Below are positions 163 to 33,454 of a stretch of DNA of 64,000 bases, piece by piece (positions within the stretch are counted from its first letter, which is position 1; every line of letters starts with the position of its first letter). The stretch spans positions 1-64,000 of the forward strand of contig CAWDTA010000004.1 in the NCBI GenBank assembly GCA_963805085.1, in the 5' to 3' direction. Position numbers and translations under genes: made by a program. Below the pieces are notes generated by a model. It did no database searches. It saw only the letters and a list, made by a program, of their open reading frames with translations, and was not told where the DNA came from. This stretch comes from an uncultured Veillonellaceae bacterium (GTDB taxonomy: Bacteria; Bacillota; Negativicutes; JARBTT01).

Positions 163-216
163 GTGAACTGACCCCCATAAGTTAGACCTAAATCTAACTT
201 ATGGGGGTCAGTTCAC
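163..216. repeat. Perfect palindrome made of two fused IS3/IS150-type terminal repeats (MITE-like scar)
   Basis: GTGAACTGACCCCCATAAGTTAGA-cctaaa-TCTAACTTATGGGGGTCAGTTCAC. The arm resembles the IS end at 24199 (TGATCTGACCCCAAAAAGTTAGA). Confidence 0.8.
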
Positions 217-448
217 GTTTCATTATATTAGCTATGTCTTCTTCTCTTTCTTGCAATAGCAAATGGGCATGATTATCCATTATGCAAAATGCTATAAGAC
301 CATATCGGTTATTATCTTTTTTCGTTTTTAGTATTTCTATAAAGTGCATTTTATCTTGGTCATCTATGAATATATCTTTTCGATCGTTACCTCTTATCAT
401 TATATGGTAATACCCTGTATTACTTTTATCTCTTTGCTGTCTTGGCAT
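194..448 (-). pseudogene. REP-associated tyrosine transposase (RAYT, Y1 HUH family), C-terminally truncated
   Basis: MPRQQR..GYYHIMIRGNDRKDIF..AFCIMDNHAHLLL contains the HUH motif. The sequence is cut by the palindrome at 216, before the catalytic tyrosine. Confidence 0.85.
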
Positions 449-497
449 GATAATCCGCTCCTTTTTCCCAGATTATCATGCCAAATTAGTTTAGGCA

Positions 498-521
498 AGC
501 CAAAAAACCGTCACTTTATCT
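498..521 (+). repeat. REP-like site upstream of the RAYT gene
   Basis: AGCCAAAAAACCGTCACTTTATCT lies 50 bp upstream of the RAYT start and coincides with the truncation point of IS630 orfB. Confidence 0.55.
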
Positions 522-1117
522 TAAACCACGTTTGATGAATGGCTTGATAGTCTCTGATCATGGATTCATCTTCAAAGAGAATTCGTTGGATATCATCATT
601 CAAGAGTTTTTTTTACAATTTCGAAATTTTGTACAAACTGCTCTTGTTTTTCCTTATCTGCTTTTGCAAGTACATAGGTTGGTCGGGTGTAGGAAAGTCC
701 CATACGCTTTAGCAGGCCAGTAATTCCGCGGATGGAATAGTCATAACCATATTCTCTTTTTATATACTTGCCAATCAAACCTGCTGTCCAATTAAAGTCT
801 GTTGAAAATCCGACATCAGACGGTACGCTGTTTAGAATAACTTGTTTTAATACATTTCGTTGTTCATGAGTAAGTCGAACTGGCCTTCCCGGTATCGACT
901 TGTCAGGAATTCCAGCAATACCTTCTTTTTTATATGTTTTGTGAACATTGCAAACTGTAATTGCTGTTATTCCTATAATGTCCGATATTTCGTTACAGAT
1001 CTTGCCCGAAAGAAACAAATATAGGGCTTGATATCTTTTATAAACACGTACTATTTTCTCTTTATCCATCGCAATTTTAATTGCGTTTAATTCTTCTTGC
1101 GTTGCTCTTATTTTCAT
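522..1117 (-). mobile_element. IS630-family transposase, truncated (HTH orfA 596-1117 plus start of frameshifted DDE orfB)
   Basis: orfA has a winged HTH and LSYTRPTYVLAKAD. After an A-run the other frame reads RILFEDESMIRDYQAIHQTWF and then breaks off near 522. Confidence 0.85.
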
Positions 1118-1317
1118 AATTTGCCACCATCCCTGTTAGTTTACTTTTTTATATTGGCAAATTCACTTAAAAACTTTAATTCATCTTATATAGAGAAATA
1201 AATTAACTCATAATTATTATAAATAAACACCACACCCTTGTAGAATCAAAGCTTTGCTCATCTTCCAAAAGATACAATTATCTGAAAGATTGTCTATTTC
1301 ACCTTTTCGGGTGGATA

Positions 1318-1588
1318 GGCAGAAATTGCTTACTATCCATGTTATTACAAACCAGATAAACATATTTTTTATACCATAGCGCTGTGAACCGTGAAAAAAT
1401 GTAAATATAAATAATAGAATAAATATAATTGATGTCAATACCGTTAGTGTGCTATTAATATTTAATCTCATAAGAAATGTACAAACAGCTATAATCAATA
1501 CACAAGCCCATTTAAAATAATCTAAAAATTTATTTTTACTTATATTGACTATAGCATTTGTATTGGTACTAGTTTATAAATCAAGCAT
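1318..1588 (-). pseudogene. CruF/DUF422-like membrane protein remnant
   Basis: FHGSQRYGIKNMFIWFVITWIVSNF motif; ATG at 1588 with an RBS, early stops and a 3' truncation. Confidence 0.5.
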
Positions 1589-1934
1589 AATAACCCCCTC
1601 CTGCAGTGGCTTTGGGCTTTGCAGGTAAATCTCCCTTGTAGTTTACAAATAAAGGGATGCTACTATTTACCATTAAATTTTTCTTTGACAAAAAAAACAC
1701 TCCTTTAATTTTTTAAAAATTTTTAGATATTATTTCATAGTAAGTATATGCCTAGAAATAAATTGACTCACAGTGATTATAAATAAACACTGCGTTGATA
1801 TTTAACTTTATATTTATTATAATATTGGTAATCAAAGAATGCACTAATCAATAATCTGATTTGTGTTTTATATTAGACAGAGTAACCCCAAAATGTTCAT
1901 TATTATATTTTTAAGTGAAGGGATATATATTAAT

Positions 1935-2582: not shown

Positions 2583-2727
2583 ATCCGTTTGAAGATAGTT
2601 CAGTATAACGTACAGTATGCTGAATATATTTATGCCCCAAATAAAACTGAATACTTCGAGTATCTTGTCCGTCATTGGCAAGTTTATATCCGGTTGCATG
2701 TCGCTGCATGTAATGATGAACAGGCAT
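2555..2727 (-). pseudogene. FimB/FimE-like tyrosine recombinase C-terminal remnant
   Basis: HHYMQRHATGYKLANDGQDTRSIQFYLGHKYIQHTVRYT is a degenerate HxLRH..LGH..Y motif; no N-terminus is present. Confidence 0.75.
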
Positions 2728-2908
2728 ACCAAGAGCTCTTAGCGTACATTAAAAATAAAGTCTGTCAAGATAGCTTAAATTTAAGCTACCTGACAGACTT
2801 TATTTTTACGTGTATGAACATTGCTGATATTATTCGTCTCTTTCCTTAGCATATGAAATACGCGTTTTGTTGGCACTACCCCATTTAGAAAAATATTTAA
2901 TTAAGTAT

Positions 2909-2950
2909 AAACTAGTAGACAAATATACGCTTCACCTTGTCCACTAGTTT
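2909..2950 (+). repeat. REP-like site with extended stem (may also terminate gltS)
   Basis: AAACTAGTAGACAAATATACGCTTCACCTTGTCCACTAGTTT; the core matches the sites at 12952 and 27606. Confidence 0.7.
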
Positions 2951-5353: not shown

Positions 5354-5440
5354 AATTAATATTTTGTAGTTACCCTTATCGTCTGAATAGCTTTCCGAAA
5401 GCAAAATGACACGTACCGTTTTTTTGTCTACATTCTTCCT

Positions 5441-9739: not shown

Positions 9740-9740
9740 A

Positions 9741-12903: not shown

Positions 12904-12951
12904 ACTGATTTGTCGATTTTATTGATAACTTAGCTTTTTTAGCATAAATTT

Positions 12952-12981
12952 GTAGACAAAAGTACGCGTCACCCTGTCTAC
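12952..12981 (+). repeat. REP-like site (best-preserved copy)
   Basis: GTAGACAAAAGTACGCGTCACCCTGTCTAC, with a 7-bp terminal stem and 5' GTAG. Confidence 0.8.
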
Positions 12982-13265
12982 CAGTGATTCCATCTTGTTG
13001 CTTTTTCCTAAGACAGTACCCCCGACACTTCGCCCGCCTCAACCTGCCATCAAAATTTTGACTATTAAACCTATATATTCTCATAAACGCTCAAAACTCC
13101 TGCCAAATTCATACAAATTCCAGCAGGAGTTTCTTTTTTGATCATACTATTGATCGACACGTTACTATTTATCCTTGCACTATTTTGACATTATTTGTTA
13201 TAATGCAAATAGGTGCTACGATAACGGTAGGCGGCTTACCTTCCCCACAGAAATGGGGTGAGCAT

Positions 13266-13337
13266 ATGGGAACTCTGGAGCTTTATGTATTACTAATACT
13301 TGCTACAGGTTACATTATCGCAATAAAAAAGAGATAA
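13266..13337 (+). CDS. Type I toxin peptide, copy 1 (MGTLELYVLLILATGYIIAIKKR)
   Basis: 23-aa hydrophobic peptide with a basic tail; promoter TTGCAC-18-TATAAT at 13175-13204; SD held in a CCCCA/TGGGG hairpin. Confidence 0.8.
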   Translation: MGTLELYVLLILATGYIIAIKKR

Positions 13338-13431
13338 CCGCCCCAATCCTGCAAGATTTAGCGGTTAAACTCTTTTGAATTAATCTCTATATTTTTGTCA
13401 GGTGAACCGTCTATCGGTAGCACCTTTTATA
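13325..13431 (-). ncRNA. Antisense antitoxin RNA, copy 1
   Basis: Minus-strand TTGACA-17-TATGAT promoter (13466-13438) and a TAACCGC..GCGGTTA terminator with a T-tract. Confidence 0.75.
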
Positions 13432-13498
13432 TTGTTTATCATAAACCAAATGTTATACATTGTCAACAGCTGGAAGCAAACGCTTGACAGGCAAAAGT

Positions 13499-13770
13499 GG
13501 CAAGCAGCCCGAGAGATTCTCGCCCTCAGGCTCTCTCAGGGCCGGACTTGAACCTCTCGATTCATCCGGCTCCCATCATCCAACCGTTGGAAAAATTCCA
13601 GACGGTTTTGTTTTGCTCATAGGCTCCTCCCTATCGGTTGACCAGTGTTCAAGACTAGATAACACAGTCCCTTTGCTCCATTCCCATTACGAATTTTCAT
13701 TACTACTACGAACTGTTCCATCCCTATACCCTGCATCTGTACTTTCGTCCTTGCGGGTTCTCCTTTTATA
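13499..13770 (-). mobile_element. Group II intron 3' half with the RT ORF deleted
   Basis: GTTCGTAGTAGTAATGAA..GTAATGGGAATGGAGCAAAGG, then GGGAGGAGCCTATGAGCAAAACAAAACCG (start of the RT ORF) joined to D5 GAGCCGGATGAATCGAGAGGTTCAAGTCCGG and D6. Confidence 0.85.
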
Positions 13771-13997
13771 ACCTGTCCCCATGTAATTCTATTATAGAAT
13801 ATCCAAGATACAGAGATTTTTTCACACACCCTCTGCACCACTAGTTCTTAAGGGGGACTAGGTTACAGCTTGCGTAGTTTTTTATTAGCAGCTGGCATTA
13901 TCATTCTGTTATAGCCGATTGTAATAGGAATAAATTGCGGTCATCGCCTTTGGGTTTATACTATTGGTCAACGTATTAAAATTTATATATCGTTAAA

Positions 13998-15896
13998 TCA
14001 ATAATCAGTATCACTGGTTGATGCAAATGGTATTGTTAAAGCACTTCGAATCATGACTTCAAATGGAGCTGCAGGTGCACCAGTAATGTCTCTAATAAAT
14101 GGTTTAGGTGCATTCTCCCAGTTGTATCTAATTCGTGCACCTCTTGTAATAGTGCATCCAAATGGTAATTCAACACTGATTTCATTTTCATTTACTGTAT
14201 ACGTCAATAATTTTATTGAACGAGTATCATCAATTAATTCAAAGAAACCATTTGCATTGCCAGATAACGTTACTCCAAAAGTCTGGAACTTAATAACTAT
14301 TTGATTTTTCATTTGATATGCATATATTGCTAAAGGCCCATTACAATATCCGTTATGATAGCCATTTATATTTTTAAACGCTTTTGCTAATGCAATCGCA
14401 ACATCTTTTTTCCGTGTTGGATGTAAGTCATCATCTTCGCCCATTTCAAGAGAAACAATCATTGCGGTATCGTTTATCAATAATCCTTTTTTTTGTTCTT
14501 CTCTTAATCGTGCCCAATCATGCTCAGGGTCAATGTCATAATTCGGAAGTTGGACAAAAAGAAATGGAAGGTATGGTTGATTAAATATTTTACGCCATTC
14601 TTGAATCATATTCGTAAATATTGATCCATAATATTCTGGATTTCCAGTGTCGCTTTCACCTTGGTACCATAAAATGCCTGTCAATGGAATTCGTCTAAGA
14701 GGATGTATCATTCCGTTAAATAAACCAATTGGTTTGTATTGAAGAAATAGCTGTGACTTTCTCTCCGGAAGCCAGCTCCCACGCTTAATTGCCCATAAGC
14801 CGAGAGTATCAACATCTAGAATTTCATCTTTGGTAACGATTAAATGCTGCTTGGTTTTTCTGATACCTCCTGGGGAATTATAAATTTTTAAACGGATTAC
14901 CATTTCAAATTCTTTTTTTAGTATTCCCAATGGATAGTTACGTGGTAGATACTGATGATCTGTTGATCCTATTTTTTTACCATTTATAAAAATATCATCA
15001 CTATCAATAAGTGTGCCGAAACGAAGTTCTCCTTCATAACCAACCATTGAATTTGGAATAGTTATTCGTTTTCTCAACCATATTACTCCTGGTGTACAAT
15101 ATTTATTAGGCCATGCTTGATTGAGCTTAACATGATCCCAAGAAGTATCATCAAATTCAGTATGCATCCAACATTCCGAAAGCCCGTCATCAACTTTTTC
15201 ACAATAATTTTGATATTGTTGCTGATAAATAGTATCGTTTTTTTCAATTAATTCAATATAACTATCATTTCTTAAACAATCAAAATTATTCGGCAAAAGA
15301 CCTAAATTTAATAATGTTTCGTGACTAACCCAACTTTTAATAGGTGAGCCACCAACTGCTGTCGACACTAATCCGATTGGTATATGCTTTTCTTTATACT
15401 GCTGTTTTGCAAAAAAATATCCTATACCTGAAAGTGTTTCTAAATCTTTTCCAATAGCGCTTTTCCATTGTCCGCCAGTTAATTCGTTCTGAGGTTTTTT
15501 AAAATCAAATTGTTCTGGAACTTCAAAAAAATGAATTAAAGAATTATCAGCTTGAGTGATTTCGTTTGGATATTCGGCTCTTAATTGGTTCATGCATAAT
15601 TCCATATTAGATTGACCACCCAAAAGCCAAACGTCGCCAAACAAGATATTACGAATCGTTATTTCTTCTTTGGCTGTAAAAATTTTGATGTCAACAGGTC
15701 CGCCTGCTTTATGCGGTGGAAGAGTAAATTCAAAATATCCTGTGATGCATTCTGCCTGTACAGCCAATGTAGTGTTTTCATAAGAAATTTCAACTCGATT
15801 ATTAGGCAGTGCATATCCCCAAAAGCTGATTGGCTTATTTTGCTGCAAAATAGCACCATCGCGTAATAAATATGGAATGAATAATGCTTTTGACAT
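13998..15896 (-). CDS. Sialate O-acetylesterase family (SASA) carbohydrate esterase
   Basis: GDVWLLGGQSNME, GILWYQGESD and DLHP motifs. Confidence 0.88.
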   Translation of the reverse strand: MSKALFIPYLLRDGAILQQNKPISFWGYALPNNRVEISYENTTLAVQAECITGYFEFTLPPHKAGGPVDIKIFTAKEEITIRNILFGDVWLLGGQSNMELCMNQLRAEYPNEITQADNSLIHFFEVPEQFDFKKPQNELTGGQWKSAIGKDLETLSGIGYFFAKQQYKEKHIPIGLVSTAVGGSPIKSWVSHETLLNLGLLPNNFDCLRNDSYIELIEKNDTIYQQQYQNYCEKVDDGLSECWMHTEFDDTSWDHVKLNQAWPNKYCTPGVIWLRKRITIPNSMVGYEGELRFGTLIDSDDIFINGKKIGSTDHQYLPRNYPLGILKKEFEMVIRLKIYNSPGGIRKTKQHLIVTKDEILDVDTLGLWAIKRGSWLPERKSQLFLQYKPIGLFNGMIHPLRRIPLTGILWYQGESDTGNPEYYGSIFTNMIQEWRKIFNQPYLPFLFVQLPNYDIDPEHDWARLREEQKKGLLINDTAMIVSLEMGEDDDLHPTRKKDVAIALAKAFKNINGYHNGYCNGPLAIYAYQMKNQIVIKFQTFGVTLSGNANGFFELIDDTRSIKLLTYTVNENEISVELPFGCTITRGARIRYNWENAPKPFIRDITGAPAAPFEVMIRSALTIPFASTSDTDY

Positions 15897-16040
15897 GATT
15901 ATCTTCTCCTTATTCAAACTTCTTAATATTATTTATTATATTTTATGTATGGCAATATATATTGAATAACCGATCTTTAAATATACCCACATACTAAATT
16001 AGAAAGTCACATTCTATACGATACATATTATTTATTTCAT

Positions 16041-16380
16041 TTATGTAAGTCTGAACAGATACGCATTGGCAGTTTTGCTCGTAATTTTAGATGTCATAAA
16101 CGCATTTGAATTGGATTTGGCATATACCAAATTGAAATATAAGTTTTCAGCTACAGTCGTACCTAATCCGATTGTATAGTAGTCTACGTAGTCACTAGGC
16201 AGTTGATGCTCTAGTACGTTTCCTCCAATACGATAATAGCCCAGTTGCAATTCGGTTGTTTTGCTTAGAGGAGCATCAATTACTAAAGACTGGTTGTTTT
16301 GCGATTGTTACTGTGCTGGTATTGTCATAGGTAGAAGTCGCTTTGCTAGCCTCCAAAGTTGCTTTTACTTTTTTAAATTT
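16041..16380 (-). pseudogene. Possible outer-membrane porin remnant
   Basis: Amphipathic beta-strand pattern (LQLGYY, YYTIGLG, LYFNLVY, AYLFRL) broken by frameshifts. Confidence 0.35.
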
Positions 16381-16428
16381 TTTATAATACTGCGATACGA
16401 AAAATGATAGGTGTTTAATTGCTATTGT

Positions 16429-16586
16429 AAACGTGCTCGGACACATTTATTATACGTTATAATAATACAGATTTTATTCAGCGTCAATAGTCATTTTCAG
16501 ATTTGCGAAAAGATTAAGAAAATTTGTTATTGACAAAAAAATCTAATAATGTTATTTTTATGCTAAGATTGATGTGCTTGAGCACA
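16429..16586. promoter_or_regulatory. Divergent sigma-A promoters with two related palindromic operators
   Basis: Rightward TTGACA-17-TATTTT (16530-16558) and leftward TTGACG-17-TATTAT; operators CGTGCTCGGACACA (16432-16445) and TGTGCTTGAGCACA (16573-16586). Confidence 0.6.
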
Positions 16587-16828
16587 ATTAATGTATGAGG
16601 AGCGTGTGAAAATGTTAATGGTTTAAAAATTTGATAGCTCTGCTATCTGCGAAGGATTCCATTATGGTAATGCAACATGTCTAAAGGTGTTGTTCAATAT
16701 ATTCCAGTATCGTGGAAGAGACAATGCCGTTTCTACACAAATAAAAGTTTATCCTATAAAAGCCTATTTGTATAAGGCAAAAATATAAATTTATTACTGG
16801 TAATTTATATAATTAGGAGGCACAAAGA

Positions 16829-18280
16829 ATGAATGTAGATATTAGAAAAAAGGTTAATGGGCGAACTAAGATTAGTAAATATATTCAAGGACAATTTTCG
16901 GAACATTTGGGTCGCGGAATATATGAAGGTATTTGGGTTGGAAAGCACAGTAAGATTTCAAACACAAATGGGATGCGTAATGATGTTGTTGCTGCATTGA
17001 AAAAAATTAATGTACCAGTGTTGAGATGGCCTGGAGGCAGCTTTGCTGATGAATACCATTGGGAAGATGGTATCGGTCCTAATGATCAGAGACGTAAAAT
17101 TGTTAATCATAGTTGGGGCGGTGTTGTAGAAGATAATTCCTTTGGAACACATGAGTATTTTGAACTTTGCCGACAACTTGGGTGCGATTCTTATGTTAAT
17201 GTAAACCTTGGAAGCGGTACTATACGGGAAATGTCTGATTGGATTGAATATATGACATCTTCAGGCGAATCAACTATGGCACAATTGAGGGCAAAAAATG
17301 GTCATCCGGCTCCTTGGAAAGTTAAATTTTTAGGTATGGGCAATGAAGCATGGCTCGGTGGTGGAAGCATGCGGCCTGAATATTATGCTGATGTTTACCG
17401 TAGATTTCAAACATATATTCCAGAATACAATGGCCCAATTTATAAAATAGCTAGCGGACCAAGTGTCGATGATTATCATTGGACAGATATTGTTATGAAA
17501 AATACAAGAGGATATTTAAATGGATTAAGTCTGCACCATTATGCCATGACAGATGTTTGGGAAAAGAAAGGCGAAGCGGTTGATTTTCAAAAGGATGAAT
17601 GGGGACGCATGTTATACAATGCACGCAGGATGGATGATTTAATTGCAAACCATTTGACGCATATGGGTCAGTATGATCCGAATCATACGACTGACTTGAT
17701 TGTAGATGAATGGGGAACATGGTTAAAGGCTGAAAAAGGGACTAATCCAGCTTTTTTATATCAACAAAATACAATTAGAGATGCAATTGTAGCTGCAACA
17801 ACACTCAATATTTTTAGCAAGTATGCTGAGCATATAAAAATGACTAATATAGCACAAATGGTTAACGTATTGCAGGCAATGATTATTACATATGAGGATC
17901 AAATGGTTTTAACTCCAACTTATTATGTTTTTGATATGTATAAATATCATCAAGATGCAATATTGGTTGATGCATTTAGTAATAATGGAGAGGATATAAA
18001 TTACACTATCTCAATGAAAAATAACGAATATATCATTTCTGTTTGCAATACTAGTATAGTTGAGGAACATAATATAACAATAACATTTGGGAACAGTATT
18101 CAAAGTCCAACATATTCAAAATGGATTCATAGTAATATTATGAATAAACATAATACATTTGATAATCCAAATAATATTTTTGAAGAAGATTTTAATCATT
18201 TTACAGTTAAGGATACCGAATTATTTATTCGTAGTGATAAAATGAGTGTGATCACTATAAAAATACCAATTACTGCATAG
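16829..18280 (+). CDS. abfA: GH51 alpha-L-arabinofuranosidase
   Basis: GQFSEHLGRGIYEG, LRWPGGSFAD, GNE and VDEWGTW motifs. Confidence 0.92.
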   Translation: MNVDIRKKVNGRTKISKYIQGQFSEHLGRGIYEGIWVGKHSKISNTNGMRNDVVAALKKINVPVLRWPGGSFADEYHWEDGIGPNDQRRKIVNHSWGGVVEDNSFGTHEYFELCRQLGCDSYVNVNLGSGTIREMSDWIEYMTSSGESTMAQLRAKNGHPAPWKVKFLGMGNEAWLGGGSMRPEYYADVYRRFQTYIPEYNGPIYKIASGPSVDDYHWTDIVMKNTRGYLNGLSLHHYAMTDVWEKKGEAVDFQKDEWGRMLYNARRMDDLIANHLTHMGQYDPNHTTDLIVDEWGTWLKAEKGTNPAFLYQQNTIRDAIVAATTLNIFSKYAEHIKMTNIAQMVNVLQAMIITYEDQMVLTPTYYVFDMYKYHQDAILVDAFSNNGEDINYTISMKNNEYIISVCNTSIVEEHNITITFGNSIQSPTYSKWIHSNIMNKHNTFDNPNNIFEEDFNHFTVKDTELFIRSDKMSVITIKIPITA

Positions 18281-18340
18281 GCAATAATGGCATTGCTGGA
18301 TGGATATGATGTTTTTTTGATAATATTGGGAGGAATAAAA

Positions 18341-19732
18341 GTGAAAACTAGTGTAGAAGTTTCACAATTGTTTAATGTTCAAAAACTTCATTTTAGTGAA
18401 AAATTAGGTTACGGTATTGGAGTTAGTGCAGTTAATCTTATATATAATGTCATAAGCACGTACTTACTGTTTTTTTATACTAACGTTTATGGCTTAAAAC
18501 CTGCAGATGCAGCAACAATGTTTTTGTTTGTCAGAATTATTGATGCTGTCGCAAGTCCGATTTATGGAACGTGGGTAGATAAAAGAACTACAAAGTATGG
18601 AAAATATAGGGGCTACTTATTGTATTTGTCAATTCCTTATGCAGTTCTGTCAATTTTGTGTTTTTATTCTCCGGATGCTAGTTATGCTATTAAATTAGTT
18701 TATGCCTATTCAACTTACATAGGATTATCGTTGCTTAATACTTTCTTGTCACCACTAGGGGCTATGCCAGCGGCAATGACAAGAGACAATAATGAAATTG
18801 CAGAAGTTAATGCATATGGTATTTTTTGTTCTAATGTAGGCGGTATGCTAATTTCATTTGGAGTTCCACTTTTAGTTACGCAGATTTCAGGAGCTTATAC
18901 TGGTGCTGATGCTCAAAGTGGATGGTTTTTTACAATGAGCATATTTGCAATAGTTGGACTAATCGGATTATTGCTGGGTTTTAAGCTTTTAGAGGAACAT
19001 TATTATATGTCTATTGAAGCAACACAATCTGTATCATTTAAGGATATTTTCGTACAAATACATGAAAATAAACCATTTGCTATTCTTTTGATCTATTTAG
19101 TGATTGCTTTCATATTTATGACAATTGTCAATTCTGTTGGCTCATACTATGTTACTTACAACATGAATAAACCGTATTTATTAAAATATTTCAATTTATT
19201 GGCAACATTACCATCTTTTATATTAGTGCCACTGTTCCCGTGGTTTAAACGTCGTCTGGGTAGAAAAGGGCTTATGTTGGGTTTTAGTGTAGTGCTGATT
19301 TTAGGTTTAGTAATTATGTATATGAGCAACCCAGAAAATATCCCTTTAGTAATGGTTGGTAAATTATTAACTTCAGTTGGAATGATTGTCATAACTGGAT
19401 ATATGTGGGCCTTTCAAACAGAAGCTGTTAACTATGGTGAATGGAAGACTGGAAAACGGGAAAATGCAATTATTAGTTCAGTTTGTTCATTTACTGTAGC
19501 AGCGGGAATGGCTATTGGCGGAGTAATTCCAGGGTACATTTTAAATTGGATCGGTTTTGACGCTAGCATTGCAATGCAATCGGCTACAACTTTGCAAGGG
19601 ATTACAATGATGCAGTCGATTATACCAACGATATTCATCATACTTGGCATGATTGTTTTTGCTTTTTATCCGATAACAGATCAAAGTATGAATCAAATGA
19701 GTAAGGAAATTGATGACCGTAGGGCGAGATGA
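18341..19732 (+). CDS. MFS glycoside-pentoside-hexuronide:cation symporter
   Basis: DKRTTKYGKYRGYLL and YGEWKTGKRE motifs; GTG start after GGAGG. Confidence 0.9.
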   Translation: MKTSVEVSQLFNVQKLHFSEKLGYGIGVSAVNLIYNVISTYLLFFYTNVYGLKPADAATMFLFVRIIDAVASPIYGTWVDKRTTKYGKYRGYLLYLSIPYAVLSILCFYSPDASYAIKLVYAYSTYIGLSLLNTFLSPLGAMPAAMTRDNNEIAEVNAYGIFCSNVGGMLISFGVPLLVTQISGAYTGADAQSGWFFTMSIFAIVGLIGLLLGFKLLEEHYYMSIEATQSVSFKDIFVQIHENKPFAILLIYLVIAFIFMTIVNSVGSYYVTYNMNKPYLLKYFNLLATLPSFILVPLFPWFKRRLGRKGLMLGFSVVLILGLVIMYMSNPENIPLVMVGKLLTSVGMIVITGYMWAFQTEAVNYGEWKTGKRENAIISSVCSFTVAAGMAIGGVIPGYILNWIGFDASIAMQSATTLQGITMMQSIIPTIFIILGMIVFAFYPITDQSMNQMSKEIDDRRAR

Positions 19733-19741
19733 GTTATAAAA

Positions 19742-19775
19742 ACAGGGCTGGAAATTCGATTTCCAGCCCTATTTT
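19742..19775 (+). terminator. Intrinsic terminator
   Basis: AGGGCTGGAAAT-TCG-ATTTCCAGCCCT followed by ATTTT. Confidence 0.75.
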
Positions 19776-19829
19776 AAAATTGGAGGAACTTATTTGTGGA
19801 ATATCAAATAACATATACGAACCCAATTA

Positions 19830-20101
19830 TACAGGGGCTCTATCCAGATCCGTCCATTTGTTTTGTTGGTAAATATTTCTACCTTGCGGGTTGCTTCCAA
19901 GTTTATTCGTCTCCATTGGCACTTACCTGATGAAATCTCGTTCCACCTTTTCCCGTAACGCTCACTACCATGGCTTTTGACCACAACAACTTACGGTGGT
20001 TTGAAGCCTCCACCTGTATGGCGACTTCGGAGGGCCTTCTTCCATATTTAGTTAAGCATAGGGTGTGGACGCTAAAACATTCACACTCTTTCGTGGCACA
20101 C
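19830..20101 (-). mobile_element. Group II intron 5' part (domain I)
   Basis: Begins GTGTGCCACGAAAG and contains GGCCCTCCGAAG..CTTCAAACCACCG..GGTCAAAAGC..GTAGTGAGCGTTACGG..AAAGGTGGAACGAGATTTC, which I recall from bacterial class D/E-like introns. Confidence 0.8.
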
Positions 20102-20229
20102 ACGCGTCATCTTGTCTAATTAACAATTCCATTTTATTTTACTTCACTTAATTTTCCATATATTTAAAAACAAAAAAAATCCGACACCGATACATTTTAT
20201 TGTACCAGTGCCGATTTTTATCATTTAAG

Positions 20230-20968: not shown

Positions 20969-21155
20969 GCTTTATGTATTACTAATACTTGCTACAGGTT
21001 ACATTATCGCAATAAAAAAAGGGATAACCGCCCAGTCCTGCAAGATTTAGCGGTTAAACTCTTTTGATTTAATCTCTATATTTTTGTCAGGTGAGCCGTC
21101 TATCGGTAGCAGCTTTTATATTGTTTATCACAAATCAAATGCTATACATTGTCAG
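20969..21155 (+). pseudogene. Type I TA module copy 2, 5'-truncated
   Basis: Matches copy 1 from codon 6 onward. No toxin promoter, SD or start; antitoxin promoter degenerate (CTGACA/TGTGAT). Confidence 0.8.
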
Positions 21156-21177
21156 CAACTGGAAACAATCGCTTGAC

Positions 21178-21203
21178 AGACAAAAGTACTCGCCCCTTTG
21201 TAT
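21178..21203 (+). repeat. REP-like site
   Basis: AGACAAAAGTACTCGCCCCTTTGTAT. Confidence 0.65.
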
Positions 21204-21442
21204 ATATATCCATCATCGTTGTGGGAATATCTAATATTTTAAGTCTAACTCTTTCATTTTTAAAGTACGCTAATTCTACAATATCCATAAATTCTCATTT
21301 GTGCTTTTAGTACAGAACATTCTTACTGGTATTGCCCCTACTATAGAAATCCCCTACTCCTAATCTAGTACTATCACTTTTGGGGGTTAGCATATTTTAC
21401 TTCTTTACTTGAGGTTTCCATTTAATAAAATTCAAAAAAATA

Positions 21443-23099: not shown

Positions 23100-23275
23100 A
23101 TTATGCGTTACTTCGTCTACATATTGTAATGTTTTGTCGAATACGTAGAAATATATCCACAACCAGAAAAAATTGCGCAAGACAGTATAATCCGTTAAAA
23201 TATAGTTTAGGCTCTATTGTCTAAAGCAGAAAAGCAGACTATGTGCTTCTGCAAATCCATGAGAGGGTGGTTTTT

Positions 23276-24121
23276 ATGATCCAGGATATTGGACCAAAAA
23301 TATTCAATAATAATTTTAAAAATCAAAAAGCCAAGGTATCTGATGTTTTCCTTTCATATGAGGGAGATACAGTTCTAATAAAAGAAGATAAAGACAAGCT
23401 ATGGTACCCGTCTTTTGCCGATTTTCAAGAGAAATATCCTTCGCTTATAGAGAAAGCACAGTTTCTTTTCACCATCAATGAAATTAATTACTATCTGGCA
23501 GACGAACAGGGTCTTGATTCCGTGGAGGGCTGGATTTATGTAAATGTCCGCCGCTTCCGTTCAGAACCAAAATATTGGCGTTCCTTTGCCGGTGCTGTCG
23601 GCTGGCAGCTAAACCGCTGGTATTCGGATCATAGATTTTGCAGCAAATGCAGGAATCCCTTGAAAAAATCCGATAAAGAGCGCATGCTCTATTGTGAAAG
23701 CTGCAGCTTTCAGATCTACCCCAAAATTTCACCAGCGGTCATTGTCGGTGTATATGACAAAAACCGTCTCCTTTTAACAAAATATGCCGGAAGAGAACAC
23801 GTTCGTCATGCACTGATTGCCGGTTTTGCGGAAATCGGAGAAAGCCTCGAACAAACAGTTCATCGTGAAGTACTAGAAGAAGCCGGATTGAAAGTAAAAA
23901 ACCTGAAATTTTACAAAAGCCAGCCGTGGCCGTTTACCGATACGCTCCTTGCCGGATTTTATGCCGAGCTCGACGGCGATGATGCCATCACAATGGAAAC
24001 CGATGAGCTTTCGCTAGCCATCTGGGTGGAACGGGAAAATATTCCAGTAGAAGATGAACTGCAAATGAGTCTGACCAGCGAAATGATATCCGCCTTCAAA
24101 AAAAATGAATTTAATTTATAG
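23276..24121 (+). CDS. nudC: NAD(+) diphosphatase, copy 1
   Basis: Zinc ribbon, Nudix box GESLEQTVHREVLEEAG and SQPWPF. Confidence 0.92.
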   Translation: MIQDIGPKIFNNNFKNQKAKVSDVFLSYEGDTVLIKEDKDKLWYPSFADFQEKYPSLIEKAQFLFTINEINYYLADEQGLDSVEGWIYVNVRRFRSEPKYWRSFAGAVGWQLNRWYSDHRFCSKCRNPLKKSDKERMLYCESCSFQIYPKISPAVIVGVYDKNRLLLTKYAGREHVRHALIAGFAEIGESLEQTVHREVLEEAGLKVKNLKFYKSQPWPFTDTLLAGFYAELDGDDAITMETDELSLAIWVERENIPVEDELQMSLTSEMISAFKKNEFNL

Positions 24122-24165
24122 GGACACGGGGACATGTTGCAGTAGCAGTGCAGGGTACTTGTCAC
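24121..24165 (-). repeat. REP-like site abutting the nudC copy 1 stop codon
   Basis: Reverse strand ends CAACATGTCCCCGTGTCCC; homology with nudC copy 2 ends here. Confidence 0.55.
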
Positions 24166-24198: not shown

Positions 24199-25638
24199 TG
24201 ATCTGACCCCAAAAAGTTAGACAAAAAATGAATTATGCAACTAATGAGGATTGAATCCTGTATCGCACAGGGCTCAGTCCTTTTAGTTTGCTCTTAATTC
24301 GTTTATTGTTGTAGTAGTCTATATATTTTTCTAGTTCAACTTTAAATTCCTCTATAGAGCTAAACTTTCGCAAGTATAAAAGTTCTGACTTAAGTAGCCC
24401 AAAGAAATTTTCCATAATTGAATTGTCTAAGCAGTTTCCTTTTCGAGACATACTTTGGATTATTCCTTTATCTCTGAGCCTTTTTTTGATAATGTTTGTG
24501 CTGATATTGCCATCCTTGATCAGAATGAAATATAAGATTTGTATCAGTTGGAATCTTTGCAAAAGCTTTATCTAACATATCCATCACTTGCCCTAATATA
24601 GGTCTTTCGCTAATGTTATAACTTATAATTTCACTATTATACATATCCAATATCGGCGATAAATATAATTTAGTGCCAAACAACGAAAACTCCGTTACAT
24701 CTGTTGTCCATTTCTGATTTGGTGCATCAGCTTTAAAATTTCTCTGAATAAGGTTCGGGGCAATTTTCCCTGTTTCACCCTTGTAAGAACGATATTTTTT
24801 GACTCTTACCATACATTTAATTTTCAATGCGTTCATTAAACGTTGTACTGTCTTATGATTGATTTTATGGCCTATATTCGTTAATTCCATTATAATTCTA
24901 CGATATCCATATCTACCTTGATTTTCATGATAAATGGCTATAATTTAATCTTTGATTGTTTTATATTTATCAGGTTCATTCGATTTTTTCAAATAATAAT
25001 AGTATGTGCTGCGTGGTATCTTAACTAGCTCTAATAATGCTGTCAGTTTATATTTCTGCCTTAATTTGGTTATGACAGCTACTTTATCGGCTTCTCCGAT
25101 TTTTCCCGCTTTTGAATTAAGGCATTCAATTTTTTTAGGTATTCATTCTCCATACGAAGTCTCTGGACTTCTAATAAAAGCTCTTCATTATTTTCGATGT
25201 TCTTACGTTCTTTTTTAATTCCCATTTTACTTGACCTTCCTCTGCGTTCTTCATACAGAGCAGCCTTGCCTTTTTCGTAATAAATACGCTCCCATGTGCT
25301 TATAGATGGATGAGATGGAATATTAAAATGTGCAGCAGTCTGGCGAATTGATGCTCCTGTATTATGCATATATTCTACGACAGAAACTTTAAAATCGCCA
25401 GTATAAGTTCTATGAGTTGTACAAAGACCATCAATACCATGTTCTTTGTAAGCTCCTACCCATTTTTGAATATCACTTTTATGTACATGATACTCATTAG
25501 AAAGTGAATTGAATCCAATATCACCTTTTAGATAGTGTTGTACTATTTTCATCTTTAATTCTGTAGTATATATTTTCTTTGGCATAAAAATACCCCTTTC
25601 ATTAGACTTTTTTTGTCTAACAAAAGGGGTTCACTTCA
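24199..25638 (-). mobile_element. IS3-family (IS150-like) element with inactivated orfB
   Basis: Ends TGATCTGACCCC.. and ..GGGGTTCACTTCA; orfA 25079-25585; orfB ([21 protein letters not shown]) is broken by a stop near 24945 and a frameshift in the T-run near 24481. No target duplication seen. Confidence 0.92.
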
Positions 25639-25781: not shown

Positions 25782-26845
25782 ATGGGCCTAGATCACACTT
25801 TGGATGAGCAAGAGCCCCAACATCAGCGACGTATTCGCTATAAAGGCACTCACCCTAAGAATTTTAAAGAAAAATACAAGGAACTGCACCCAGAGCAATA
25901 TGCTGATGATGTAGTAAAGATTATTCAGAAAGGCAATACCCCTGCCGGTATGCATATTTCAATTTGCGTTAAAGAAATATTGAAATTCCTGCAAATCACA
26001 CCAGGACAAACCGGATTAGATGCAACACTAGGCTATGGCGGTCATACTTTAGAGATGCTCAAATGTTTAGATTCAAAAGGGCACTTGTATGCAATTGATG
26101 TAGATCCTATTGAATTGCCGCGCACCAAAGCTCGTTTAGAGCGTTTGGGTTATGGCCCCGAAATCTTAGAAATCAAGCAGATGAACTTTTCCCAAATAGA
26201 TCAAGTTGCTTCCGAACCAGGGTCATTCAATTTTGTATTGGCAGATTTGGGCGTTTCTTCTATGCAAATAGACAATCCTGAAAGAGGCTTTTCCTTTAAG
26301 GCAGAAGGGCTGTTGGACTTACGGCTTAACCCCAAAAGGGGGAATCTGCAGCAAGTCGTTTAAAAGAGATGACATTAGATGAATTACAGGATATGTTGAT
26401 AGAAAATGCTGACGAGCCTCATTCTCGACCAATCGCTCGCGCCATTATTTCCAACATAAAAAAAGGAATTGATATATCAACAACAACACAACTCCGAAAT
26501 ATCATCAAAGATGCTCTGAAATCGATTCCACAAATTACTGAAGATGAGATTAAAAAATCTTGTCAACGATCCTTTCAAGCGTTGCGAATTGATATCAATA
26601 ATGAGTTTGAAGTGTTAGATGAATTTTTAGAAAAACTTCCTGATGTCCTTGCTAAGGGTGGACGCGTTGCCATACTTTCATTTCATTCAGGAGAAGATCG
26701 TCGCGTTAAAAAATCTTTTAAACACTTTTTTCGTGAAGGCGTTTATCGTGAAATAGCACCCGATCCTATTCGTCCATCAGCAGAAGAATGTCATGTCAAC
26801 AGTCGTGCACGTTCTGCTAAATTACGTTGGGCAATCAAAGCATAA
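25782..26845 (+). pseudogene. RsmH/MraW-like methyltransferase paralogue, frameshifted
   Basis: DATLGYGGH and DLGVSSMQID in one ORF, FQALRI and SFHSGEDR in the next; the shift lies at CCCCAAAAGGGGG (about 26330-26342). Confidence 0.85.
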
Positions 26846-27102: not shown

Positions 27103-27327
27103 AAAAGCGACGAATACCTAAGTACTCGTCGCTTTTATTTATTTGTAATGCTATTTTACTTCAACCACGTTTCATTATAAACATCAATCGCTGCTTGATG
27201 TTTACCCATGATTTTTTGTGCAGTTTTTAAGCTTTGCTCTACTTGTTTGTAGGAAGTACCACCAAAGAAATTACGATTTTCTACGCAGGTTTCTGCTTTG
27301 ATTGCTTCTAAGATATCGGCTTCAAAT
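27103..27327 (-). pseudogene. argH: Diverged copy of the argH 3' end plus terminator
   Basis: [44 protein letters not shown] matches the ArgH C-terminus; AAAAGCGACGA..TCGTCGCTTTT hairpin. Confidence 0.9.
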
Positions 27328-27381
27328 AGTGCTACGATAACGGTAGGCGGTTTACCTTCCCCACAGAAATGGTGTGAACAT

Positions 27382-27453
27382 ATGGGAACTATGGAGCTTT
27401 ATGTATTACTAATACTTGCTACAGGTTACATTATCGCAATAAAAAAGAGATAA
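27382..27453 (+). CDS. Type I toxin peptide, copy 3 (promoterless)
   Basis: MGTMELYVLLILATGYIIAIKKR; SD altered to GGTGTG; antitoxin promoter intact at 27555-27583. Confidence 0.7.
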   Translation: MGTMELYVLLILATGYIIAIKKR

Positions 27454-27605
27454 CCGCCCCAATCCTCTCCAAGATTTAGCGGTTAAACTCTTTTGATTAA
27501 TCTCTATATTTTTGTCAGGTGAACCGTCTATCGGTAGTACCTTTTATACTATTTATCATAAATCAAATGTTATACATTGTCAACAATTAGGAGTAAACGC
27601 TTGGC

Positions 27606-27631
27606 AGACAAAAGTACGCATCACTTTGTCT
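27606..27631 (+). repeat. REP-like site
   Basis: AGACAAAAGTACGCATCACTTTGTCT. Confidence 0.8.
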
Positions 27632-27645
27632 ATTTTGATGAAAAA

Positions 27646-30611: not shown

Positions 30612-31961
30612 GTGATCATGACCAAGACTGACGAACATATTTTTCAGGACCCTTACGCTAAAATCGGCTATAAGCTTCACCTGCTTTTACATACAGGACA
30701 GCTTCTCATGGAAAGCGGTGCCGATACTAACCGTATTGCTCGCGACATGATGCGGGCAGCTGCCTTTATGGGCATTCCGGAAGAAAAGATCCATATGCAT
30801 ATTATGTATACAACACTGATGCTCAATATCAGTGATGACGACCATTCGTATACAAGTTTTCGCAAATGTCGGCATCACGGCATAAATATGACGGTAATCT
30901 CCGCCATCAGCAAGCTGTCTTGGCGGGCAATGGAAGAAAAATATTCCCTGCAAATGTACGAGGCTGAGCTAGAGCGTATTCAAAATCTCGAACATCACCG
31001 CCATTATTCGTTTTATCTATCCGCTATTGCTGCAGGGCTAGCATGTGGAGGTTTTTGCAAGCTGTTTAGCAGTGACTGGATTGCTTTTTTCTGGACAGCG
31101 CTTTGCGCATCTCTCGCCTTTGCGGTTCGCCACTTTTGCAATAAAATGGAGATTAATCCCTATGCAGGGATATCTATTTCTGCATTTACAGCAACAATGT
31201 TGGCGTATTTTACCCATTTTTTCTCTGGGTCTGCAACGCCCTGGCATCCACTGATTGCCTGCACATTATTTATCGTTCCGGGCATTCCGCTAATCAATGC
31301 CATTGATGATTTGTTAAACAATTATATTGTTTCCGGCAGTACAAGAGCAATTAATACCCTTTTAATCGTCGGCGGTATGACCTTCGGCATCGTTCTGGCG
31401 ATACGGCTTGGCAACGTTCCTGATTTTTTTACTTCTCTAAATATAGCCCCGCACAGTATTTACTTATCCGATGCGATTGCCGCTGCCATCGCCTCTGTCG
31501 GTTTCTCCATTATATTCAATGTACCGCCCCGGCTTCTTGCTGCAACCGCAGTTGGCGGTATAATCTCGATCGGTCTGCGAAATTTTTGCGTCATCGATCT
31601 CGGCATGACACAAGAAATTGGCGCCTTTGTCGGCGCAACAGCCGTCAGCCTGCTCGCACTTAAAGCGGTGCACTGGTTTCATACGCCGGTCCATGTCATT
31701 ACAATTCCATCGGTCATTCCCATGATCCCCGGAGTGCTTCTTTATCGGCTTCTATTTGCAGTTCTTAATATAAAAGCTCTGGATGCGGCTGCGCTTATGG
31801 CAGGGATACAAAACGGGGTAGAAGCTATTTTAATTATTATCAGCATTACAGTAGGTGCAACCATCCCCAAAATTTTTGCCCGCCGCTATATTGAAAAAAA
31901 TAAACAATTACATCTGGAAGAATTGCTGGCTAAGCGTTCAGAATCAGAAACAGCCCATTAA
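30612..31961 (+). CDS. ThrE-family threonine/serine exporter
   Basis: GQLLMESGADTNRI, VPGIPLINAIDDL and PMIPG motifs. Confidence 0.9.
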   Translation: MIMTKTDEHIFQDPYAKIGYKLHLLLHTGQLLMESGADTNRIARDMMRAAAFMGIPEEKIHMHIMYTTLMLNISDDDHSYTSFRKCRHHGINMTVISAISKLSWRAMEEKYSLQMYEAELERIQNLEHHRHYSFYLSAIAAGLACGGFCKLFSSDWIAFFWTALCASLAFAVRHFCNKMEINPYAGISISAFTATMLAYFTHFFSGSATPWHPLIACTLFIVPGIPLINAIDDLLNNYIVSGSTRAINTLLIVGGMTFGIVLAIRLGNVPDFFTSLNIAPHSIYLSDAIAAAIASVGFSIIFNVPPRLLAATAVGGIISIGLRNFCVIDLGMTQEIGAFVGATAVSLLALKAVHWFHTPVHVITIPSVIPMIPGVLLYRLLFAVLNIKALDAAALMAGIQNGVEAILIIISITVGATIPKIFARRYIEKNKQLHLEELLAKRSESETAH

Positions 31962-32157
31962 ATACAAAACAACTACATAGCCACATACAAAAAACAGCGT
32001 CTTCTCAAAATAAAAGAAGGCGCTGTTTCAATCAATATCCACAACCAAAAAAAATTGTACAAAACAGTATAATCCGTTAAAATATAGTTTAGGTTCTATT
32101 GATTACAGCAGAAAAACAGACTATGTGCTTCTGCAAATCCATGAGAGGGTGATTTTT

Positions 32158-33003
32158 ATGATCCAGGATATCGGGCCAAAAATATTCAATAATAATTTTA
32201 AGCATCAAAAAGCCAAAGTATCTGATGTTTTCCTTTCATATCAGGGAGATACAGTTCTAATAAAAGAAGATAAAGACAAGCTGTGGTACCCGTCTTTTGC
32301 CGATTTTCAAGAAAAGTATCCTTCGCTTATAGAGAAAGCACAGTTTCTTTTCACCATCAATGAAATTAATTACTATCTGGCAGATGAACAGGGTCTTGAT
32401 TCCGTGGAAGGCTGGATCTATGTAAATGTCCGCCGCTTCCGTTCAGAACCAAAATATTGGCGTTCCTTTGCCGGTGCTGTCGGCTGGCAACTAAACCGCT
32501 GGTATGCAGATCATAAATTTTGCAGCAAATGCAAGAATCCTTTGAAAAAATCCGATAAAGAGCGCATGCTCTATTGTGACAGCTGCAATCTTCAGATCTA
32601 CCCTAAAATTTCACCAGCAGTCATTGTCGGTGTCTATGATAAAAGCCGTCTCCTTTTAACAAAATATGCTGGAAGAGAACACGTTCGTCATGCACTGATT
32701 GCCGGTTTTGCGGAAATCGGAGAAAGCCTCGAACAAACAGTTCATCGTGAAGTACTGGAAGAAGCCGGGCTGAAAGTAAAAAAACTGAAATTTTACAAAA
32801 GCCAACCGTGGCCGTTTACAGATACTCTCCTTGCCGGATTTTATGCCGAGCTCGACGGCGATGATGCTATCACACTGGAAACCGATGAGCTTGCACTGGG
32901 CATCTGGGTAGAGCGGGAAAACATTCCAATAGAAGACGAACTGCAAATGAGTCTGACCAGCGAAATGATATCCGCCTTCAAAAAAAATGAATTTAATTTA
33001 TAG
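32158..33003 (+). CDS. nudC: NAD(+) diphosphatase, copy 2
   Basis: Same length as copy 1 and differs at only a small number of residues. Confidence 0.92.
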   Translation: MIQDIGPKIFNNNFKHQKAKVSDVFLSYQGDTVLIKEDKDKLWYPSFADFQEKYPSLIEKAQFLFTINEINYYLADEQGLDSVEGWIYVNVRRFRSEPKYWRSFAGAVGWQLNRWYADHKFCSKCKNPLKKSDKERMLYCDSCNLQIYPKISPAVIVGVYDKSRLLLTKYAGREHVRHALIAGFAEIGESLEQTVHREVLEEAGLKVKKLKFYKSQPWPFTDTLLAGFYAELDGDDAITLETDELALGIWVERENIPIEDELQMSLTSEMISAFKKNEFNL

Positions 33004-33015
33004 GGTTCTTAATAC

Positions 33016-33297
33016 AAAAGCGACGACTCCTTTCGGAATCGTCGCTTTTATTATTATTTGACTTCTACAACTTTTTCATTATAAGCATCAATCACTGCTT
33101 GATGTTTATCCATGATTTTCTCAGCAGTTTTTAAGTTTTGTTCTACTTGTTTGTAGGATGTCCCACCAAATGAATTGCGGTTTTCTACGCAGGTTTCGGC
33201 TTTGATTACTTCTAGGATATCGGCTTCAAATAATGGTGAGAATTGTTTAAATTCCTCTAGGGATAAATCCATCATCCATTTATTGTTTTCAATGCAA
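33016..33297 (-). pseudogene. argH: Second diverged copy of the argH 3' end plus terminator
   Basis: Matches 34770-35051 with scattered substitutions. Confidence 0.92.
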
Positions 33298-33299
33298 CA

Positions 33300-33454
33300 G
33301 GTACAAGGGGACAGGTTATTTGTCCCACACTCATTTTTTGATCATCAGAAGTTTTGAATATTCCCTATTCTCTTTATAACATTGAAATAACTCTAACTTA
33401 TAACCTAAATAAATTCCGTTTTACAGGGGATAGGAAACCTGTCCCCTTATTCCC
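33300..33454. repeat. Inverted pair of REP-like sites
   Basis: GGTACAAGGGGACAGGTTATTTGTCCCAC (33300-33328, reverse) and GGGATAGGAAACCTGTCCCCTTATTCCC (33427-33454). Confidence 0.7.

Follow-up and report, generated by a model that had tools for sequence, protein, structure and literature searches.

The DNA analysed in this study is a stretch of 64,000 nt (hereafter the window; positions 1 to 64,000 of contig CAWDTA010000004.1, assembly GCA_963805085.1) from an uncultured Veillonellaceae bacterium, and the element in question is a 30-bp imperfect palindrome, named type A, which occurs in its left half together with a second group of palindromes, named type B. The window has a mean G+C content of 37%. 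Its part from 34.8 to 64 kb is core DNA, with argCJBDFGH, the genes for a TonB-dependent receptor and an ABC importer, cwlD and rpsI-rplM-truA-ECF-rplQ-rpoA-rpsD-rpsK; since a TonB-type outer-membrane receptor and a spore-cortex amidase occur together, the host is probably a diderm, spore-forming Firmicute of the Negativicutes type. The left half is an accessory patchwork that holds gltS, lysR, the gene for an SNF2/SWIM helicase, nitroreductase genes, ada-alkA-ogt, sugar-use genes, a tautomerase gene and hxlR, and further two copies of nudC, an ion channel gene and thrE. Mobile debris is also found there, namely a fragment resembling REP-associated tyrosine transposases (RAYT; REP, repetitive extragenic palindrome), orfA of IS630 and an IS3 element (IS, insertion sequence), part of a tyrosine recombinase and what is left of two group II introns. 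Everything from position 1 to 34.7 kb makes up a genomic island, downstream of argH, that was built in several layers and has decayed.

An earlier reading of the letters (hereafter the sequence-only reading) had listed sites of both types, placed them at gene breakpoints and proposed that they serve as recombination joints of an integron-like gene array run by a RAYT enzyme supplied in trans. This observation was partly confirmed: recombination joints are a possible reading of type A and of some type B sites, and the RAYT-driven, integron-like mechanism is not supported.

The type A palindrome

Type A has a 12-6-12 layout, in which two inverted 12-bp arms, GTAGACAAAAGT and CACCCTGTCTAC, surround the palindromic hexamer ACGCGT, and its best copy is GTAGACA-AAAGT-ACGCGT-CACCC-TGTCTAC. 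As read from the sites, 10 of the 15 positions of each half are symmetric, the outer seven and the inner three. With a 24-nt consensus at up to three mismatches, three sites (2918, 12955 and 27607) were detected in the window, against a shuffle mean of 0.00, and none of 100 shuffles reached three matches. Two further copies, one degenerate (21175-21204) and one split (13482-13494 plus 20102-20119), were recognized by reading the places listed by the sequence-only reading. All five copies, given below, are on the plus strand; three of them are tied to a toxin-antitoxin (TA)-like repeat of about 340 nt, described in the next section.

2915..2944, plus strand: copy A1 (47.2 bits), the arms extending to a 13-bp inverted repeat (2909-2950)
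12952..12981, plus strand: copy A2, the best copy (52.8 bits)
13482..13494, plus strand: left part of copy A3, at the right end of TA repeat copy 1
20102..20119, plus strand: right part of copy A3, completing it without loss or duplication
21175..21204, plus strand: copy A4, degenerate (45.1 bits), at the right end of TA repeat copy 2
27604..27633, plus strand: copy A5 (50.4 bits), at the right end of TA repeat copy 3

A1 follows the stop codon of the minus-strand gltS by about 23 nt, A3 an open reading frame (ORF) of 141 aa by 110 nt and A5 an ORF of 168 aa by 265 nt, both of these ORFs being on the minus strand as well. Successive sites are spaced by 10 kb, 0.5 kb, 1 kb (intron excluded) and 6.4 kb, with genes on both strands.

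Outside the window, a pattern fitting all four well-preserved copies (the split copy once rejoined) was searched in 185,579 species-representative genomes, and a single locus was hit, in Propionispora sp. 2/2-37 (1999-2028 of the 4-kb locus L001). By blastn this locus has the motif (about 30 bp) in common with the window and nothing else. The Propionispora copy lies within 4 nt of the stop codon of a 75-aa DUF4926 ORF, which is preceded by a 411-aa ORF ending in DUF6883; we read the two ORFs as a candidate toxin-immunity pair. Type A is, where its copy number could be measured, low-copy, and it is present across genera. Blastn searches of plasmid and phage sets with the 40-nt type A motif, with the TA repeat plus type A and with the IS3 region gave no match or matches at chance level (E 0.6-2), and the motif strings were not found in the searchable literature. 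A G+C-rich hairpin at L001 1725-1747, about 255 nt from type A, looks type B-like by eye (18 of 22 positions), the core match being reached by 85 of 500 shuffles.

The four window copies that are contiguous and the one from Propionispora were used to build a covariance model, with which the window and L001 were scanned, filters off. The model recovered only its own five copies (E≤3e-9), the best unrelated loci having E 1.2-1.8, and a profile hidden Markov model from the same copies likewise recovered those copies only. Five of the six places listed as type A by the sequence-only reading hold; the sixth, a weak reverse site at 5407, was not recovered (nhmmer E 8.2; no covariance-model match at E≤10). 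Additional half-sites seen by eye at 5399-5428 and 23103-23125, both on the minus strand, gained no statistical support. In agreement with the earlier claim that the core half lacks the motif, no covariance-model match below E 1 was found from 34.8 to 64 kb. This absence is weak evidence because the island has far more DNA outside ORFs of at least 110 aa (11,392 nt, against 4,196 nt in the core), and a simple estimate from such DNA gives P ~0.21 for five sites, and ~0.08 for eight loci, to fall in the island by chance. A promoter role of type A was considered and dropped, as by eye no -10 element stands at the right spacing inside the site.

The toxin-antitoxin-like repeat, the argH duplicates and the intron in A3

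The repeat of about 340 nt is present four times (13158-13498, 20969-21187, 27330-27615 and 34400-34738), and type A forms its right end in the first three copies. Without the type A part, the copies are as follows.

13158..13481, plus strand: TA repeat copy 1, full: promoter of the extended -10 kind, ORF of 23 aa (13266-13337), shared terminator, and convergent promoter on the minus strand (13466-13438)
20969..21174, plus strand: TA repeat copy 2, beginning inside the toxin ORF, antitoxin side kept
27330..27603, plus strand: TA repeat copy 3, without the toxin promoter, joined at a CAAATA microhomology to a diverged argH 3' fragment
34400..34715, plus strand: TA repeat copy 4, full, beside the argH terminator, with no type A after it

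The homology between the copies stops at the right edge of type A in three of the four, and in copy 4 it stops a few bases into the left arm of type A. The repeat looks like a type I toxin-antitoxin locus. Its putative toxin is a hydrophobic peptide of 23 aa, MGT(L/M)ELYVLLILATGYIIAIKKR, with C-terminal KKR, and a leader hairpin is predicted to hide the ribosome-binding site. The putative convergent minus-strand promoter agrees with the consensus at 11 of 12 positions. The toxin mRNA is predicted to be closed by pairing of its 5' and 3' parts (z -3.16), and the antisense RNA to end in a terminator hairpin with a U-tract (z -3.96). The antitoxin side is kept in two of the four copies (copies 2 and 3) despite the loss of the toxin start or promoter. 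In these respects the unit resembles par/Fst of pAD1 and TxpA/RatA, where a short hydrophobic peptide likewise ends in a basic tail and the convergent antisense RNA uses the same two-way terminator, with a predicted 5'-3' pairing and a hidden ribosome-binding site. It differs from them in that the peptide has no Pfam match at E≤10, and a search of Rfam, over the window at the gathering threshold and over 12800-14000 at E≤1, returned group II intron parts and nothing for the TA RNAs or for type A.

Two candidates related to this repeat were discarded. The view of A2 and of the type B hairpin B2 (described below) as equivalent places left of two TA copies was dropped on account of poor alignment left of the shared terminator hairpin, and the junction right of the argH-proximal copy was dropped as a Firmicute dif site, since by eye only its left arm fits the dif consensus.

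The same region carries duplicates of core and accessory genes.

34808..36232, minus strand: intact argH, the first gene of the core arg operon
33007..33300, plus strand: duplicate (294 bp) of the argH terminator and the last ~250 nt of argH, 93% identical to 34761-35054
27103..27329, plus strand: older and more diverged copy of the terminator and argH 3' end
23153..24123, plus strand: nudC copy 1 with its upstream region, duplicating 32035-33005

Both nudC genes are intact (23243-24121 and 32125-33003), and their proteins are 95% identical. The two nudC copies and the two partial argH 3' ends indicate that diverged alleles of one and the same neighbourhood entered repeatedly. Between the two argH 3' copies of 93% identity lies a block (33301-34741) with a type B pair, an HNH ORF and a TA unit, a layout that would be expected from an integrated circle carrying its own argH 3' end. 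The HNH ORF of this block (33566-34372, 221 aa) has a weak HNH signature (Pfam E 0.006; IscB HNH region E 9e-4) and apparently interrupts a terminator hairpin of which 13078-13145 and 11583-11650 are unbroken copies; a free-standing gene for a homing-type endonuclease is one possibility.

Copy A3 is interrupted by a minus-strand group II intron, which is itself interrupted.

13495..13768, minus strand: 3' part of the intron, with the end of the maturase ORF and domains D5 and D6 (274 nt kept)
19898..20101, minus strand: 5' part of the intron, with domain D1 (204 nt kept)
13760..19881, no strand assigned: 6.1-kb insert in the intron, with genes for a SASA esterase, an arabinofuranosidase and an MFS transporter

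The intron splits A3 exactly between AAAAGT and ACGCGT, with its 5' GTGTG at 20101, and its domains were assigned at 13491-13574 (D5/D6, E 1.5e-5) and 19925-20043 (D1). Since the two halves of A3 make one complete site with nothing lost or duplicated, the intron entered a pre-existing site. It is dead: a reverse-transcriptase ORF is absent and the interior has been replaced. The 6.1-kb insert has no terminal inverted repeats and is flanked by the 11-bp sequence CCTTGCGGGTT (13749 and 19882), which occurs only these two times in the window against 0.02 expected. From seams with direct repeats of 11, 30 and 294 bp, the island can therefore be described as a set of integrase-less blocks flanked by direct repeats.

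On Enterococcus faecalis plasmid LR962543.1 (3150-3200 of locus L002), a related intron fragment has a 5' exon that resembles the right half of A3 (12 of 18 positions matching), and the intron in A3 therefore probably chose its site by sequence; this match suggests that the intron family may home to sequences like the right half of A3. The plasmid copy is degenerate, with no D5 match and no large ORF. One could thus regard all type A sites as look-alikes of the homing site of this intron, in line with the exact, lossless insertion and with the exon match, but only one of six copies is occupied, the intron is dead, and the recurrence of a sharp-edged 30-bp sequence would be left unexplained, so that we find this account hardly credible. 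A second group II intron remnant, consisting of D5/D6 only, was noted at positions 1-75 on the minus strand and is 89.6% identical to Paenibacillus urinalis plasmid sequences; when window positions 1-1300 were compared with plasmids by blastn, this D5/D6 was all that matched, in Paenibacillus plasmids.

As single-stranded DNA (ssDNA), four of the five type A copies fold at -1.1 to -3.9 kcal/mol (z -0.9 to 0), no better than shuffles, while A1 reaches -7.3 kcal/mol (z -5.3); the type B hairpins give -5.0 and -7.5. When the strands are folded as RNA, each of the four copies compared does better on the minus than on the plus strand (-17.8/-11.7, -10.9/-7.2, -7.8/-5.7 and -6.5/-4.0 kcal/mol), and in every copy the three A's of the left arm stand opposite C or T, so that G.U or A-U pairs can form on the minus strand (55 of 60 pairing cells over the five copies). 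The same paired fraction is reached by 104 of 500 shuffles, the columns barely vary, and the covariation, with one pair changed on both sides, is not significant. A structure of type A is possible but unproven; its primary sequence, including the centre, is clearly conserved.

The minus-strand fold and the pairing in the left arm fit an account in which type A has no recombination role but acts as the 3' stem-loop of a minus-strand RNA or as a protein-binding site, travelling with the TA unit and some other genes, and in which the array arose by homologous recombination or duplication of diverged nudC-argH-TA segments. The location of type A copies downstream of minus-strand ORFs, the presence of nudC, the argH 3' end and the TA unit in long, diverged duplicates, and the microhomology at the argH fragment/TA junction (27330) all favour it. 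However, the z values of the minus-strand RNA are modest for three of the four well-preserved copies (-0.8 to -2.1), the covariation is not significant, no U-tract follows the type A hairpin, the TA copy beside argH works without type A, and the solitary A1, A2 and Propionispora copies are sharp-edged on both sides in unrelated contexts. We regard this account as possible, though rather unlikely.

Type B cores, breakpoints and the RAYT fragment

Among the nine places listed as type B by the sequence-only reading, four share the core GGGGACAGGTT, one (13851) is weak, and four (498, 9518, 9551 and 25638) are unrelated. The sequence AACCTGTCC occurs three times in the window against 0.20 expected, and none of 100 shuffles reaches three; AACCGTCC, with one occurrence against 0.76 expected, is at chance. 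The 14-nt core CAAGGGGACAGGTT is found at up to two mismatches at 13770(-), 24125(+), 33304(+) and 33436(-), where a simple estimate predicts ~0.4, and at three mismatches it falls to chance level (shuffle mean 3.08).

13768..13785, minus strand: type B core B3, at the inner break of the intron, paired with 13851-13866
13851..13866, plus strand: weak core B4, inverted partner of B3, its likeness judged by eye; the 99-nt pair folds at z -2.94
24125..24138, plus strand: core with two mismatches, 2 nt past the end of the nudC-duplicate homology
33302..33327, plus strand: hairpin B1, adjoining the point where the argH 3' duplicate ends
33424..33450, minus strand: hairpin B2, inverted partner of B1

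Two of the type B loci are thus inverted pairs, 99 and 145 nt long. The GACA..TGTC ends which had been proposed to unite types A and B are at chance level, since the frame GACA-N12-20-TGTC matches 8 times where 4.43 matches are expected, a count attained in 11 of 100 shuffles. A direct link between the two types was also not significant: B1 is the best match outside the training set for both type A profiles, at E 0.37 and 1.8.

As confirmed breakpoints we counted those established INDEPENDENTLY of the motif. Of the four good type B cores, three are no more than 5 nt away from a homology end defined without it, in accordance with three of the junctions claimed earlier: the interruption of the intron (claimed at 13770), where homology to other introns stops at 13768; the end of nudC homology (24121), where the duplicate ends at 24123; and the end of argH homology (33297), where the duplicate ends at 33297-33300. 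Other claimed junctions did not withstand inspection. The supposed Fe-S reductase truncation at 9570 is a complete nitroreductase of 167 aa that aligns over the whole nitroreductase domain; the place at 25638 lies just outside the inverted repeat of the IS3 element itself; and at the IS630 orfB/RAYT junction (521) no related motif is present. Type B makes up a further palindrome family, weaker than type A, whose members lie where other inserted blocks end. The proposal of recombination joints fits a subset of sites, that is, type A by its edges and orientation and three type B cores by their position at homology ends.

The mobile remnants near these sites are the following.

194..448, minus strand: RAYT-like Y1 transposase fragment, HUH motif kept, Tyr-bearing part missing, cut off by the palindrome at 163-216
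163..216, no strand assigned: perfect 24-nt palindrome with a 6-nt centre (~52 bp overall), made of two abutted IS3-type terminal repeats
24204..25634, minus strand: IS3-family element with its own terminal repeats

The truncated RAYT gene reported by the sequence-only reading is real. The fragment matches profile NF047646 at E 4e-9 and the IS200 model at E 0.003, and its score of 36.5 bits remains under the 80-bit cut-off because only half of the protein is present; it keeps HUH (NHAHLL), and the ORF breaks off past profile position 77 (of 146), short of the Tyr region. The motif copy said to lie ~50 bp upstream of it is not there: site 498 is unrelated (E 33 with the type A profile), and the hairpin 5' of the fragment (442-484, a 14-bp inverted repeat) is found nowhere else in the window, so that neither type A nor type B flanks the fragment. 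The repeats of the palindrome at 163-216 are identical at 18 of 20 positions to the IS3 end at 24203, and this palindrome could be a minimal IS derivative or a relic of a circle junction.

The presence of this fragment raises the alternative that types A and B are REP- or REPIN-like repeats at 3' gene ends, found at seams only because palindromes attract insertions and illegitimate joining, and spread by an activity that collects no genes. According to PMC3733652, REPs are palindromes of 20-40 bp that occur in high copy number and bear a tag, GTAG or CGTC, and a RAYT gene has either GTAG repeats or long inverted repeats on its flanks. Both families here are extragenic imperfect palindromes in this size range at 3' gene ends, type B occurs as inverted pairs resembling REP doublets, and a group II intron landed in one type A copy. 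On the other side, the claimed GTAG start is present in two of six type A sites (A1 and A2, with Propionispora counted) and in none of five type B sites, the flanks of the RAYT fragment carry neither repeat, and the primary sequence, loop included, is conserved rather than the stem. Moreover, the type A ssDNA hairpins are weak, the one other genome with the motif has one exact-pattern copy, below REP-like abundance there, and none is found in the 29-kb core half, which is weak evidence. We consider such an origin of the sites unlikely.

The stronger proposal of the sequence-only reading, that an in-trans RAYT/HUH enzyme cuts and joins these sites as ssDNA hairpins and thereby builds an integron-like cassette array, could appeal to the HUH motif of the fragment, to the sites at several seams and to the constant right end and variable left ends of the TA-linked copies, a pattern that one-ended rolling-circle events could also produce. 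RAYTs are not known to assemble gene arrays. The lack of any motif beside the fragment, the rarity of GTAG and the weak hairpins stand against this proposal as well, as do modules of up to 10 kb with genes on both strands, and it appears highly improbable. Papers on RAYTs, in the text considered here (PMC3733652, PMC3116915, PMC3337134, PMC8266576), describe the spread of REPs only, and a literature search on REP-associated tyrosine transposases in Firmicutes yielded nothing relevant.

Three additional features were noted in passing. An rsmH-like methyltransferase gene (25782-26845) is split over two ORFs in different frames (193 and 158 aa), which cover profile positions 3-130 and 144-307 of 309, and is probably a pseudogene. 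A perfect 23-nt inverted repeat with a 9-nt centre (21445-21499), possibly an operator or a terminator, lies just upstream of the tautomerase gene and hxlR. In the core half, units of 12 nt are repeated in tandem (55919-56062) within a 217-aa ORF without family match (55753-56406).

Type A as a possible attachment-like joint

The reading that we prefer, held tentatively and with somewhat less than even confidence, takes type A sites as joints of an attachment-like kind between integrative modules that accreted in tandem downstream of argH and then decayed, their remnants being kept by TA addiction. Type A would be a recombination joint of the attachment (att) or lox type; modules with one site each would have entered in tandem, leaving co-oriented sites between them, and would later have lost their mobility genes by deletion. 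The small type I TA locus beside the site would have survived as loss of the antitoxin is costly. Tandem entry, decay and TA retention together would explain why the same TA end is found with different left truncations at three sites. What is observed are the sites with their orientation and sharp edges, the repeats and the breakpoints; site-specific recombination, accretion in tandem and retention through addiction are inferred from them. This reading is favoured by the common orientation of the five window copies, by the end of the TA-repeat homology at the right edge of type A, by the low copy number of the motif across genera, by the sharp edges of the solitary A1, A2 and Propionispora copies in unrelated contexts, by the location of type A copies 3' of minus-strand ORFs, and by the other integrase-less blocks with direct repeats (argH 3' ends, nudC copies and the 11-bp repeat). 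In addition, a 12-6-12 layout is typical of simple core sites of tyrosine recombinases.

The sole enzyme candidate in cis is a broken small tyrosine recombinase beside A1.

2583..2727, minus strand: C-terminal ~48 aa of a FimB/FimE-type tyrosine recombinase, pseudogene, with the catalytic R-H-Y region, 188 nt left of A1
2757..2801, no strand assigned: terminator-like hairpin, whose arms carry CTTGACAGAC, equal to the left arm and flank of the TA-linked type A copies

The fragment lies between tetR and A1, and the hairpin between the fragment and A1. The fragment matches NF007371 at E 6.5e-14 and an integron-integrase model at E 7e-4. Its relatives are FimB/E-like proteins of 190-200 aa with 74-83% identity, and a search for full-length relatives found no identical intact copy, the best being 83% identical.

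Several observations weigh against the attachment-like reading. The central hexamer deviates in A1, A4 and A5. Copies A3, A4 and A5 form the right end of the TA repeat and are hence not independent, so that the window holds about three independent occurrences; since these three copies travel with the repeat, homologous recombination or duplication can explain them. The better minus-strand RNA fold hints at a role at the RNA level instead. The modules between the sites hold ordinary metabolic, repair and transport genes and no mobility functions. No intact recombinase is present in the window, and none was found within 2 kb of the Propionispora copy. The recombinase fragment is broken on the side facing A1, its break (~2728) is not at type A, and it may be one more piece of debris among the RAYT, IS630, IS3 and intron fragments. 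FimB/E-type enzymes, moreover, are known as invertases and not as integrases.

Tandem arrays of integrative elements also have co-oriented short repeats between accessory blocks, a duplicated target end (here the argH 3' end), an integrase remnant at one end and addiction modules beside the repeats, but here no integrase is intact, the type A array does not directly abut argH, and three type A repeats are embedded in the longer TA repeat. With loxP, FRT, dif and the pdif modules of Acinetobacter, type A has in common an imperfect palindrome of ~30 bp with a 12-6-12 layout, within the core-site form of inverted 11-13-bp arms around a 6-8-bp spacer, as well as modules of a few genes including TA units, and an enzyme that could act in trans. 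It differs from dif in having no sequence likeness and in arms that are symmetric in the outer, not the inner, part; pdif modules are flanked by inverse sites whereas all type A sites are direct. The region resembles integron arrays in its co-oriented sites after the 3' ends of co-oriented ORFs, in a recombinase remnant beside the first site and in TA units. However, IntI is absent here, the only candidate being the 48-aa FimB/E-type C-terminal fragment; attC sites end in RYYYAAC ... GTTRRRY, whereas type A ends in GTAGACA ... TGTCTAC; and integron cassettes are mostly single-ORF and co-oriented, in contrast to modules of 0.5-10 kb with several genes in both directions.

A bolder form of the idea is that type A sites are lox-like sites of a gene-collecting platform of Negativicutes, in which a FimB/E-type enzyme or one acting in trans moves multi-gene modules and TA units stabilize them. 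We judge this to be quite improbable; if true, it would be an integron-like system built from different parts.

Should the sites prove to be passive palindromes, we are dealing with an ordinary patchwork island, and the main value of the present analysis is a corrected map of it, freed from the idea of a RAYT-driven integron. If type A is a working joint, it would show how little-studied diderm Firmicutes stack accessory genes beside a core operon, and would provide a simple marker for such stacks in other genomes; the repeated TA unit would in that event illustrate clearly how addiction can keep the ends of mobile elements that are otherwise dead.

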